In this document: positions 7,908 through 10,904 of the stretch, piece after piece
How the letters are laid out: each line of letters starts with the position of its first letter
Numbering within the stretch: the stretch's first letter is position 1
DNA from: Saccharofermentans sp.
GTDB taxonomy: Bacteria > Bacillota > Clostridia > Saccharofermentanales > Saccharofermentanaceae
Length of the DNA: 64,000 bases
NCBI GenBank assembly: GCA_016292135.1
Contig: JAEFAZ010000010.1
Span: forward strand, 7,560 to 71,559
Reading direction: 5' to 3'
Made by a program: the position numbers and the translations under genes
The notes under the pieces: model-generated
What the model was told of the DNA's origin: nothing
What the model saw: only the letters and a program-made list of their open reading frames with translations
Databases searched by the model: none

Positions 7908-10904
7908 TTAATAATCGCCACCATATGTGGTGCCCTTGGTCGTCGTATCCTTGGTCGTATCCTTGGTCGTGCCCTTTGTAGTGCCCTGAGTCGTTGACCT
8001 TGTAGTCGACCTTGTCGTGGACCTTGTAGTGGATCTGGTTGTATGTCTTGTCGTTCTTCTCGTTGTGTGACGAGCCGTTGTGGTAGCCTTGGTGGTTGCC
8101 TTAGTCGTGGTCGTCGCCTCTTCGGTAGAAGTCGTAGTCGTTGTTTCATCCTCCGTTGTCGTAGTAGGCTCCTCCGTAGTAGTGGTGGTAACCTCCTCTG
8201 ACTCGGTCGTTGTCGATTCATCAGTGGTGGTAGTGGTCGTCACTTCTTCCGTTGTTGTGGTCGTTGTGCTTGAATCAACGGGAGCCTGCCTCCTGCCTAC
8301 ACTGTTGGCTATAACAAATATGCCGACGATTATCAGAAGAACAAGGAAAGTGATGACGGCTTTTCCTGCTCCTGATTTGAGGAAGTTAAGGAATTTATTC
8401 TCTTCCTTATACTGGTCATTGCTGAGAAGGAATCCGTCAGACAATCTATCATTGCTGCCCTTCTGGGAAGCAACGGTCGAAGAAGCTCCTCCGCTTCTTG
8501 CCCATGCGGTTGAATTGACCTTGGAATCCGATGCGCTTGCAGCAGGTCTGAAAGGAGAATTTGAATCAACTTTATTTGCTGCTGTGTTATCCTTTGCAAC
8601 TGCTGCTGCAGTCTTGGGAGCGAGCTTGTTTTCGGCAGGCTTATTGGGAGCCTGCTTGACTCCTCCCTTAGGAGCGAATCCGGGAGCCGTTGTAACGGTC
8701 TTGCTTTCAGCAGGTTTTGTCCCTTTGCCGTCTGCTTTTGCAAGTCTTGCAGCCATTGCAGATGTTCCGGCAGCCTGTACCTTCTTATCTGCGGGCTTAT
8801 TCTCCTTGGCCTCGGTCCTTGCGAGTCTTTGAGCCATTGCAGATGCTCCGACCTGCTCTTCTGCTGCTTTCTTGGCATCTTCCTTAGCCTGTTCTGCCTT
8901 CAGCATCGCAACAGACTGAGCAGGTTTTCCGGCTGTTCCGGTAGCCTTGGATGTAACAGGCTTATTCGCAGCAGTAGGCTTAGCGGCGGCTGCTGCAGGT
9001 CTTGTTGCTTCCTTGGCAGGAGCCTTGGCGGGCTGCTTAGCTGCATTTGCATTTGATAAGGGCTTAAACGGAGAATTAGCGTTATCAGCAGGCTTGGCAG
9101 CTTCAGTGTTGCCCAAAGGCTTGAAAGCTACATTGGGCTTAGGCTCATCAGCTTTCGGCTTCTCGGTCTTTGCCAGAGGCTTGAACGGAGAATTATCCGC
9201 AGGAGCTGCAGAAGCAGCAGTTTCCTGCTTTGCCAAAGGCTTAAACGGTGAGTTGGAATTATCTGCAGGTCTGCCTTCAGCTGATACCAGAGGCTTGAAC
9301 GGAGAATTTGCATTATCCGCGGGCTTTGCCGTATCTGAACTGCCCAAAGGCTTAAACGGTGAATTGGAATTGTCCGCAGGCTTGCCTTCGGCTGATACCA
9401 GAGGCTTGAAAGGAGAATTTGCATTGTCCGCAGGCTTTGCCGTATCTGAACTGCCTAAAGGTTTAAACGGTGAATTGGAATTATCCGCAGGCTTGCCTTC
9501 AGCAGATGCCAGGGGCTTGAACGGAGAATTAGCGTTATCAGCAGCCTTTGCCGGATCTGAAGCAGACAAGGGCTTAAACAGCGGATTTGTCTTTTCCTTA
9601 GGCTTGCTGTCGTTAGCAACGCCCAAAGGCTTAAAGGGTGAATTGGAATTATCTGAAGTTGTTGTATCAGCCTTGGCAAGAGGCTTAAACGGAGAATTGG
9701 AATTATCCGCAGGCTTCGTATCCTGAATCGCTCCGGGTCTCGAAGCGGCTGCCTTGAAAGGTGACTTCGTGTCATCAGCAGCTTTTGCCAAAGGTTTAAA
9801 AGGCGAATTACCGTCGCCCGATGCAGCCGATGCAAGAGGCTTGAACGGCGAGTTGGAATTGTCAGCCGGTTTCGGATCGGCAGATGCTGCCGGCTGGATT
9901 ATTGCTGCCTTAAACGGAGAATCCGGATTATCTGAGAGCTTTGCGGATGCGGCAGGTTTGAAAGCAGAGGTCGCCGGCTTAAACGGAGAATTAGCGGCGG
10001 CAGCTGCTCCGGCAAGACCTGCAGCCGCTGCGCCTGTCGCTGCGGCAACATTCTGGCTGCCTTCGGGAAGGAGTTTCTTAAGATCAGTATTCATCTTGGA
10101 AGCCGACAGATATCTCTTGTCGGGATCAGCATTACAAGCATTGCTGATGATGGCATTGAACCTTACTCCGCCTTTTGCCGAAGAATTGAAAGCTTCTCCG
10201 GCCATTCTCTTGGCAAGAGCATTCTTAAGATCATCTGCTGTAAAGTCTTCGGGATCATGAGGAAGGAAGGGTCCCCTCTTTCCGTTCAGCTGAACATAAA
10301 GGACCATTCCGAGCGAATAAAGGTCATCCAGGTTATCTAATATCTGTTCATCTTTTGCTTCCGGAGGACAGTAATCCATCTTGTCGGGAGCGCCTGAAGA
10401 ACCGATGATCTTGGCGATCTCGACCGTTCCGAAATCACCTAATGTGAAAGAACCCTTATCGTTAAGGAAGATGTTTGAAGGCTTGATAGCGCCATGCTTG
10501 ATGTTCTTGTATTCACAGAATTCGAGAGCAGATGAGATGTCAGCGCCTAACTTAGCTACCTCATCCCTGTCGAGTTCACGTCCCTGAGCATAAGCTGCAA
10601 GAGTCTGACGGAAAGGCATCTTGATCAGTACATCTGCTGATCCGTCAGGATTATCGATGCGGGATATCTCATTATCAATGAAAACATTTTCGTTTCCCTT
10701 GAGGACGTCAGACTTCTTAACTACTTCAACAACCTCATCAGCCGTGGAAGAATCTTTTGTATGGATCACCTTCATCGCTGCCTTGCCGGCTGAAACGGAA
10801 TCGGTAATCTCATATACTGTGCCGCAAGAACCGGCACCGATCGCGGACTTAACGGTCCAACCGCCGAAAAACGGTCCCTTTGCTTTGATTTCGTTAATAT
10901 CCAT
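7908..10904 (-). CDS. Membrane-anchored Hanks-type Ser/Thr kinase-like protein (predicted pseudokinase) with repeat linker and Thr-rich tail
   Basis: GAGSCGTV G-loop, AAMK, HGAIKPSN, DFG, YCPPE, DLYSLG; one TM segment (AVITFLVLLIIVGIFVIA). Confidence 0.88.
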   Translation of the reverse strand: MDINEIKAKGPFFGGWTVKSAIGAGSCGTVYEITDSVSAGKAAMKVIHTKDSSTADEVVEVVKKSDVLKGNENVFIDNEISRIDNPDGSADVLIKMPFRQTLAAYAQGRELDRDEVAKLGADISSALEFCEYKNIKHGAIKPSNIFLNDKGSFTLGDFGTVEIAKIIGSSGAPDKMDYCPPEAKDEQILDNLDDLYSLGMVLYVQLNGKRGPFLPHDPEDFTADDLKNALAKRMAGEAFNSSAKGGVRFNAIISNACNADPDKRYLSASKMNTDLKKLLPEGSQNVAAATGAAAAGLAGAAAAANSPFKPATSAFKPAASAKLSDNPDSPFKAAIIQPAASADPKPADNSNSPFKPLASAASGDGNSPFKPLAKAADDTKSPFKAAASRPGAIQDTKPADNSNSPFKPLAKADTTTSDNSNSPFKPLGVANDSKPKEKTNPLFKPLSASDPAKAADNANSPFKPLASAEGKPADNSNSPFKPLGSSDTAKPADNANSPFKPLVSAEGKPADNSNSPFKPLGSSDTAKPADNANSPFKPLVSAEGRPADNSNSPFKPLAKQETAASAAPADNSPFKPLAKTEKPKADEPKPNVAFKPLGNTEAAKPADNANSPFKPLSNANAAKQPAKAPAKEATRPAAAAAKPTAANKPVTSKATGTAGKPAQSVAMLKAEQAKEDAKKAAEEQVGASAMAQRLARTEAKENKPADKKVQAAGTSAMAARLAKADGKGTKPAESKTVTTAPGFAPKGGVKQAPNKPAENKLAPKTAAAVAKDNTAANKVDSNSPFRPAASASDSKVNSTAWARSGGASSTVASQKGSNDRLSDGFLLSNDQYKEENKFLNFLKSGAGKAVITFLVLLIIVGIFVIANSVGRRQAPVDSSTTTTTTEEVTTTTTTDESTTTESEEVTTTTTEEPTTTTEDETTTTTSTEEATTTTKATTKATTTARHTTRRTTRHTTRSTTRSTTRSTTRSTTQGTTKGTTKDTTKDTTTKGTTYGGDY
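9061..9995 (-). repeat. Coding tandem repeats (K)PADNxNSPFKPL, including a 111-bp higher-order unit
   Basis: About 15 SPFK copies plus FKP variants; ttaaacggtg recurs at 9241, 9352 and 9463 (111-bp period). Confidence 0.95.

Follow-up and report, generated by a model that had tools for sequence, protein, structure and literature searches.

Can a kinase domain that has lost its catalytic base remain a functional protein, and if so, in which capacity? This question is raised by a 998-residue open reading frame (ORF) on the minus strand of a 64,000-nucleotide stretch of Saccharofermentans DNA (GenBank assembly GCA_016292135.1, contig JAEFAZ010000010.1, positions 7,560 to 71,559; hereafter the window). 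The ORF occupies window positions 7908-10904, with its stop codon at 7908-7910. A preliminary description, made from the sequence letters, had proposed that positions 10062-10904 (residues 1-281) encode the kinase domain of a bacterial membrane pseudokinase in which the HRD motif is changed to HGA. We find that the protein is indeed a pseudokinase by sequence definition and that the loss of the HRD Asp is conserved in its orthologs. Probably, as judged from residue pattern and analogy, it is a nucleotide-binding, catalytically impaired membrane pseudokinase that is kept by selection and acts as a membrane-tethered interaction or regulatory module of the HER3/JAK JH2 type.

The kinase domain lacks the phosphotransfer residues and retains those for nucleotide binding

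The N-terminal part of the protein has a protein kinase fold. Pfam PF00069 (Pkinase) matched residues 17-268 with an E value of 4.2e-20 (72.7 bits against a gathering score of 31.7), and an AlphaFold2 model of the kinase domain, with 41 aligned sequences, had a mean predicted local distance difference test (pLDDT) score of 91.5 and a predicted template modelling (pTM) score of 0.90. The top Foldseek matches of this model were S. aureus PknB/Stk1, Nek2, Aurora A and M. tuberculosis PknB, with a probability of 1.00 to PknB, Nek2 and Aurora A; the nearest bacterial folds are 4eqm and 3ori.

Within this fold, minus-strand nucleotides 10496-10488 read CAT GGC GCT and encode H137-G138-A139 as part of HGAIKPSN, in agreement with the preliminary description. 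The HRD Asp is the catalytic base and is not needed for ATP binding (PMC4718504). Pseudokinases are recognized bioinformatically by the absence of at least one of the VAIK Lys, HRD Asp and DFG Asp; here it is the HRD Asp that is missing, position 139 being Ala in the window protein and Ala, Ala, Ala and Asn in four orthologs. The HRD Arg and Asp were each 100% conserved in all 111 aligned kinase domains of the parent family described below and, by this measure, the change to HGA is far beyond chance.

The nucleotide site presents the opposite picture. As had been noted, the G-loop, the beta-3 Lys (K45), K141 and N144 of the catalytic loop and the DFG motif (residues 157-159) are retained. Across the window protein and its orthologs, five sequences with identities down to 54%, the nucleotide and metal contacts G23, G25, G28, V30, A43, K45, K141, N144 and D157-F-G were invariant. 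The G-loop, beta-3 Lys, catalytic-loop Asn and DFG Asp among them are the nucleotide and cation contacts expected of the HER3/JAK JH2-like class. D194 and R264 are also present in the window kinase domain.

The reported absence of GT from the P+1 loop (APDKMDYCPPE) was likewise found to be correct, the two columns being occupied by D174 and K175. In the five-member clade D174 is invariant, position 175 reads K/R/R/R/N and position 139 varies between A and N. A180 is changed to P or S and no Thr remains between DFG and PPE, leaving an activation segment that is free of Thr and without the Thr of GT. In PKA the P+1 Thr hydrogen-bonds the HRD Asp.

The state of alpha-C is less clear. The family alpha-C Glu (96% conserved) aligned with V61 in a gapless MAFFT alignment and with K64 by hhalign in all five clade members. 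The two methods disagree on the column, but by both the Glu is apparently lost, and with it, probably, the Lys-Glu salt bridge. An acidic residue one position upstream of V61 is conserved (E60, Asp in the ortholog L024) and might substitute for the missing Glu. Altogether, 69 columns are conserved to at least 85% among 111 active family members. The five clade members all keep 43 of these, and the changes, among them R138, D139, G174, T175, A180 and the alpha-C Glu, are concentrated in the network of phosphotransfer and activation.

Loss of the catalytic Asp is conserved among orthologs

The preliminary description had asked for an alignment of orthologs and for an estimate of the ratio of nonsynonymous to synonymous substitution rates (dN/dS), and both were carried out. 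Four syntenic orthologs of 81, 77, 70 and 54% identity read HGA, HGA, HGA and HGN, respectively, and none of them has HRD or HGD. The closest, L022, stems from a rumen metagenome-assembled genome labelled Saccharofermentans sp. RUI411; its kinase domain has 81% identity and the sequence KHGALKPAN, with the codons CAC GGA GCG, which all differ synonymously from the three HGA codons of the window. HGA was also found in a 77% identical fragment from the protein databases (P0122) and in the 70% identical L024 (genome G068, Ala codon GCC). An exact-sequence look-up of database names gave none for P0122, and neither the window protein nor its 81% identical ortholog was in the collection. The 54% identical ortholog (P0002, locus L021) has HGN and lies in the same neighbourhood as the window gene (Suf, P-loop, SPFH, kinase, ferredoxin-oxidoreductase). 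This protein was identical in three independent metagenome assemblies, and a metagenome scan for further clade members yielded only the two additional copies of P0002. In a genus-wide search the gene was carried by 3 of 100 species genomes, namely the window's own, G078 (81% identity) and G068 (70%, L024).

With the Nei-Gojobori method (NG86), the comparison of the window kinase domain with that of L022 gave a dN/dS of 0.10, a value that is approximate since dS, at 1.06, approaches saturation. For housekeeping genes nearby the same comparison gave 0.02-0.045. The pseudokinase gene is therefore, by these estimates, under purifying selection, yet evolving faster than its neighbours.

These data bear directly on the rival explanation that HGA reflects a sequencing or assembly error, or that the gene was recently inactivated and is heading to decay. 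In its favour, Ala and Asp are one base apart (GCT/GAT), as the preliminary description had pointed out together with the altered Arg and the intact ORF. However, the Asp is missing from four independent orthologous sequences, position 139 of the clade being encoded by three synonymous Ala codons (GCT, GCG and GCC) and one Asn codon. All orthologs have the adjacent Arg-to-Gly change in common, no copy shows an interrupted 3-kb ORF other than by the end of a contig or locus, and the dN/dS is low. Error or decay is scarcely credible on this sequence record, which effectively refutes it.

As a separate observation, synonymous divergence from L022 is strongly mosaic across window positions 6501-16585. 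The dS was 0.009 for SufD, 0.15 for SufB, 0.27 for the SPFH gene, 0.37 for SufC, 0.58 for the oxidoreductase and 1.10 for the P-loop gene, and within the pseudokinase ORF it was 1.06 for the kinase domain and only 0.37 for the Thr-rich tail. The pattern suggests that strains have recombined and that breakpoints fall within the pseudokinase gene.

The clade is a degenerate offshoot of a clostridial receptor-like kinase family

The parent family is large, an exhaustive profile search having yielded more than 1000 representatives at E<1e-30. It consists of clostridial bitopic receptor-like Hanks Ser/Thr kinases with an N-terminal PFFGxW motif, a C-lobe GPFLP motif and varied ectodomains, to which the window kinase domain aligned by hhalign with a probability of 100, an E value of 2.4e-81 and 36% identity. 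Its members are true homologs with 29-43% identity over the whole kinase domain that share the motifs PFFGxW, LYSLGMVLY..LN..RGPFLP and RM.GE and the bitopic layout of a cytoplasmic kinase, a low-complexity linker, a transmembrane helix and often a Thr-rich stalk. The family members have HRDIKPxN, GT..YMAPE, the alpha-C Glu, an insert of about 20 residues between beta-3 and alpha-C and folded ectodomains (Big_2, LRR, RCC1-like and others). In contrast, the clade has HG[A/N] and D[K/R/N], the family-typical insert is deleted and a folded ectodomain is absent. Hence the HRD motif, the GT and apparently the alpha-C Glu, which are 96-100% conserved in the family, are missing, and by sequence the clade is a catalytically degenerate offshoot of this family.

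Catalytic-loop motifs were matched across the 149 newly returned representatives; of those recognized, 140 were HRD, four HRN, two HGA and one HGD. A maximum-likelihood tree was computed from 122 kinase domains. The five HG[A/N] sequences came out as one clade, with a support of 100 in the Shimodaira-Hasegawa-like approximate likelihood ratio test (SH-aLRT); the stem of this clade measures 1.3 substitutions per site, and it lies nested within more than 110 HRD sequences. This position within an HRD family on a long stem indicates that loss of the catalytic Asp is derived; a burst of change then followed. A single base change turns Asp into either Ala or Asn, but Ala into Asn takes two; the Ala and Asn states may therefore represent parallel losses from an HGD ancestor. 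One HGD protein of 38% identity (P0143) was considered as an intermediate sister of the clade and rejected, since the tree places it elsewhere. P0034 takes the sister position, but on a long branch that makes this placement untrustworthy.

Degeneration is not confined to this clade. Another family member, P0036 (HRRICPEN), is independently degenerate and also lacks the GT. The family also includes tandem pseudokinase-kinase proteins: in P0127 and P0138 an HRN domain, whose DFG has become GFG or GFE, stands N-terminal to an HRD domain. In P0133 an HRD domain precedes a copy that comprises just the C-lobe, reads HGAIRPEN/DSG and has an ETLEDSPAR repeat in the activation loop. Judged by these motifs, pseudokinase derivatives arose repeatedly in the family, sometimes in cis with an active domain.

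A proposed role and its alternatives

In the scheme that we favour, the domain descends from an active kinase of the clostridial receptor-like Ser/Thr family. On the stem of the small Saccharofermentans clade the phosphotransfer and activation network was lost, comprising the RD Arg (now Gly), the catalytic Asp (now Ala or Asn), the P+1 Gly-Thr and apparently the alpha-C Glu, and every ATP- and Mg2+-binding residue (G-loop, K45, K141, N144 and DFG Asp) was kept. The present domain would bind nucleotide as a structural or conformational cofactor without meaningful substrate phosphorylation, the disordered linker of about 560 residues with its 18 SPFKP-type motifs would supply multivalent docking, and the Thr-rich tail would be an extracellular stalk and not a sensor. 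The preliminary description had proposed an ATP-binding allosteric switch or scaffold that couples the Thr-rich ectodomain to the repeat array. An ATP-binding, non-phosphorylating module fits the invariant ATP and metal residues. The coupling part finds no support, the ectodomain being a low-complexity segment of 126 residues with 51% Thr and no sensor fold. To speak of an undescribed signalling system, as was also done, is speculation. The gene is monocistronic, lies at a variable chromosomal site, has no conserved partner gene or operon and is present in 3 of 100 genomes of the genus.

Several points weigh against a nucleotide-binding pseudokinase that has given up catalysis. Kinases without a catalytic base can keep residual activity, as is the case for HER3 and JAK2 JH2 (PMC4718504), and the invariant D174 appeared next to the active site and might compensate for the lost Asp. 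The measure of selection is approximate for the reason given above. Comparison of loci from genus relatives revealed no conserved neighbouring gene specific to the pseudokinase, and a search of the genome with a hidden Markov model (HMM) of the family found no active same-family paralogue (self 224 bits, next 100 bits).

The protein could accordingly still be a working, atypical kinase that lacks the canonical base and has a low but physiologically relevant rate or a relocated acidic residue, for which D174 is the candidate. Such a role is consistent with the invariance of the nucleotide- and metal-binding residues and the catalytic-loop Lys down to 54% identity, with the constancy of D174 while positions 139 (A/N) and 175 (K/R/N) vary, and with the reclassification of HER3, JAK2 JH2, KSR2 and CASK as weakly active (PMC4718504). 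We nevertheless regard it as unlikely. The RD Arg, all activation-loop Thr residues, the P+1 Thr and apparently the alpha-C Glu were lost together, which is the pattern of an abandoned catalytic apparatus, the acceptance of Ala as well as Asn in place of the base speaks against a need for specific chemistry at this site, the stem of the clade is long, and the placement of D174 near the gamma-phosphate is a reading of the sequence. A catalytic base that has migrated, such that D174 (the former Gly of the P+1 GT) and the basic or amide residue 175 rebuild the phosphotransfer site from the activation segment, appears very unlikely to us; if it were true, the clade would represent a Hanks kinase with a relocated catalytic Asp. 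At the other extreme, the domain might be a fold-only structural anchor that binds no nucleotide, does not signal and serves as a protein-protein or membrane-proximal module like EssB/YukC. The probable loss of the alpha-C Glu and the lack of a sensor ectodomain, an operon partner and a phosphatase or FHA gene among the neighbours at the locus would agree with this. However, none of the five orthologs departs from the G-loop glycines, K45, N144 or the DFG Asp, whereas EssB/YukC and all seven named bacterial pseudokinase families have at least the VAIK Lys degraded (PMC12599244; bioRxiv 10.1101/2025.01.12.632604). We consider a mere anchor quite unlikely and retain nucleotide binding with impaired catalysis as the probable state of the domain.

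Protein layout and genomic context

The features of the gene and its product are collected in Table 1. By hydropathy the window protein is a bitopic membrane protein, and the same architecture was found in the orthologs L022, L024 and P0002.

Table 1. Features of the pseudokinase gene and its immediate surroundings (window coordinates)
Feature	Position	Strand	Basis or remark
Whole ORF	7908..10904	-	998 residues; order: kinase-fold domain, disordered SPFKP linker, transmembrane helix, Thr-rich tail
Hanks-type protein kinase fold, residues 1-283, cytoplasmic, without signal peptide	10056..10904	-	Pfam, AlphaFold2, Foldseek
Glycine-rich loop GAGSCGTV, residues 23-30, intact	10815..10838	-	G23, G25, G28 and V30 invariant in five orthologs
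Beta-3 (VAIK) Lys K45, retained	10770..10772	-	Alignment
E60-V61; V61 in the family alpha-C Glu column (gapless alignment), E60 a conserved acidic neighbour	10722..10727	-	Alignment
HGA (H137-G138-A139) where the family has HRD; RD Arg and catalytic Asp both lost	10488..10496	-	Codons, alignment
K141-P-S-N144, catalytic-loop Lys and metal-binding Asn, retained	10473..10484	-	Alignment
DFG, residues 157-159, retained	10428..10436	-	Alignment
D174-K175 in the columns of the family P+1-loop GT	10380..10385	-	Alignment; APDKMDYCPPE
PPE, residues 180-182, replacing APE; Glu E182 kept	10359..10367	-	Alignment
Disordered cytoplasmic linker with 17 [S/P]xFK[P/A] motifs, residues 306-615	9060..9989	-	DNA repeat periods of 54 and 111 bp
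18th linker motif, SPFRP	8544-8558	-	Motif count
Single transmembrane helix, residues 849-871	8292..8360	-	Hydropathy maximum 2.9 at residue 849
Extracytoplasmic tail, about 126 residues, 51% Thr, C-terminal YGGDY	7911..8291	-	Composition, Pfam scan
Ribosome-binding site GGAGGA, 10 nucleotides upstream of ATG	10915..10920	-	Read from sequence
Candidate sigma-70-type promoter TTGTAA, 17 nucleotides, TATATT	10947..10975	-	Consensus match only
Strong intrinsic terminator, 11-bp stem and T7, ending the upstream SPFH/zinc-ribbon gene	11075..11100	-	Hairpin
GC-rich hairpin directly after the stop codon, weak T tail; probable terminator before the ferredoxin/2-oxoacid oxidoreductase operon	7873..7894	-	Hairpin

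The low-complexity cytoplasmic region that follows the kinase fold carries 18 [S/P]xF[K/R][P/A] motifs, mainly as ADNxNSPFKPL. Between the SPFKP array and the transmembrane helix, residues 688-723 (window 8736-8843, minus strand) hold two copies of an amphipathic SAMAxRLA[R/K]xE motif, which is conserved among the HGA orthologs and present in three copies in L024. A Pfam scan found no folded domain or sensor fold, and no real Pfam domain, in the Thr-rich tail. The protein ends in YGGDY (window 7911-7925, minus strand), the orthologs end in FGGDY or FYADY and the distant family members P0143 and P0003 in EWDY and VWEY; this may constitute an aromatic-acidic-Tyr C-terminal motif that is conserved outside the membrane.

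A second bitopic membrane protein of about 787 residues without a Pfam match is encoded outside the window (G000 C8:209991-212387, minus strand). It consists of a disordered cytoplasmic region with five [SN][AP]FK[PSN] and four K/R-L-F/Y-G motifs, a transmembrane helix, a Thr-rich linker and a small C-terminal domain. The [SN][AP]FK[PSN] motif is expected 0.06 times in a protein of that length, and only this protein and the pseudokinase exceed two copies in the genome, which hints at a common cytoplasmic binding partner. In a bold reading, the SPFKP array would be a multivalent docking platform for a cytoplasmic partner common to both proteins.

Flanked by the hairpins listed in Table 1, the pseudokinase gene is, as read from its sequence, monocistronic. 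Upstream lies a gene (window 11124-12506, minus strand) whose product combines an SPFH/Band_7_1 domain with three zinc-ribbon repeats (CxxC...CxxC) at the C-terminus and was found in 13 of 15 related genomes at E<=1e-40, some of which have a second, shorter paralogue. It is preceded by a gene (window 12583-13398, minus strand) for a 271-residue protein with a Walker-A-like GAYGSGKS motif and no Pfam or NCBIfam match, which also occurs next to the SPFH gene in L021, L022, G005 and G006 (58-92% identity). A functional link of the pseudokinase to these two genes was considered and rejected because a strong terminator lies between them and the arrangement differs in relatives without the pseudokinase. 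Between the SPFH gene and the ferredoxin/2-oxoacid oxidoreductase operon, G001 (L028) has no gene at all, the two abutting directly, G005 (L029) has glmM and a nagB-like gene, G006 (L030) has polysaccharide-synthesis genes, and three of the 100 species of the genus have the pseudokinase. Given that the contents of this interval vary in this way among relatives, the pseudokinase is, on this comparison, an accessory gene at a variable site whose neighbours say nothing on its function. Recent horizontal transfer was rejected on compositional grounds, the GC content across the gene (0.46-0.53) being like that of the flanks.

Elsewhere in the genome three HRD kinases were detected, one of them PASTA-type (about 25% identity), and a fifth, weaker ORF resembles a kinase (C11:166706-167851). 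As a dimerization partner, an active paralogue of the same family was rejected, none being found by the family HMM.

Comparison with known systems

The PknB/PrkC/Stk1 PASTA kinases are the nearest solved bacterial folds and share the order of cytoplasmic kinase, linker, transmembrane segment and ectodomain. However, NCBIfam PknB_PASTA (NF033483) scored 64.3 bits against a cutoff of 450, the Pfam scan found no PASTA repeats, and the PASTA-type HRD kinase of the genome is a separate protein. Assignment to defence-system or lanthipeptide kinases was also rejected, the NCBIfam MADS6 and LanL matches being far below their cutoffs.

The statement that pseudokinases are rarely characterised in bacteria is right insofar as few have been studied at the bench, but they have been extensively catalogued. 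A 2025 atlas of about 300,000 bacterial Ser/Thr kinases describes seven pseudokinase families (bioRxiv 10.1101/2025.01.12.632604; PMC12599244), named ActPs1-3 (including M. tuberculosis MviN), GLW, CP1, DYD and DLHK. The HG[A/N] clade is thus an instance of a well-recognized kind. Like these families, it has a bacterial Hanks-fold domain with degraded catalytic motifs, many of the catalogued proteins being membrane-associated and few having an established function. In every one of the seven the VAIK Lys is substituted, in most the DFG Asp as well, and they are mostly actinobacterial, proteobacterial or cyanobacterial. The window protein retains K45 and DFG and is clostridial and therefore, going by the family descriptions, belongs to none of them. 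EssB/YukC of the type VII secretion system T7SSb is likewise a Firmicute bitopic membrane protein whose N-terminal cytoplasmic pseudokinase domain acts as a scaffold. EssB, encoded in a T7SSb cluster, has degenerated in all three catalytic motifs and in both the G-loop and the activation loop (PMC12599244). The window protein has its motifs intact except for HRD, and its gene lies singly between the SPFH gene and the 2-oxoacid:ferredoxin oxidoreductase operon, with Suf genes nearby.

As read from sequence, the protein falls in the functional class of HER3 (ErbB3) and JAK JH2, in which the HRD Asp is replaced, the VAIK Lys, the catalytic-loop Asn and the DFG Asp are kept and the alpha-C Glu is lost or unused (PMC4718504). 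These pseudokinases, which have lost only the HRD Asp, bind ATP with one cation, often without the Lys-Glu bridge, and have allosteric or scaffold roles (PMC4718504). HER3 is, moreover, a membrane-anchored receptor, and the window protein is likewise anchored in the membrane. There is no specific homology beyond the kinase fold, four of the five clade members have Ala rather than Asn at the base position, and HER3 and JAK JH2 have an active kinase as partner, in the form of a paralogous receptor or of a tandem domain, whereas the window genome has no close active paralogue. The reach of the finding is limited to a few uncultured or poorly studied rumen Saccharofermentans species, with no partner or pathway identifiable from locus or genome. 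Bacterial pseudokinases are widely predicted and almost none has been studied, and the seven described families all lack the ATP-binding Lys. The HG[A/N] clade has lost essentially only the phosphotransfer and activation network and has kept the nucleotide site, as HER3 and JAK JH2 do, and close active relatives are available for comparison. Hence it offers a compact model for the turning of a bacterial receptor-like kinase into a nucleotide-binding pseudokinase.

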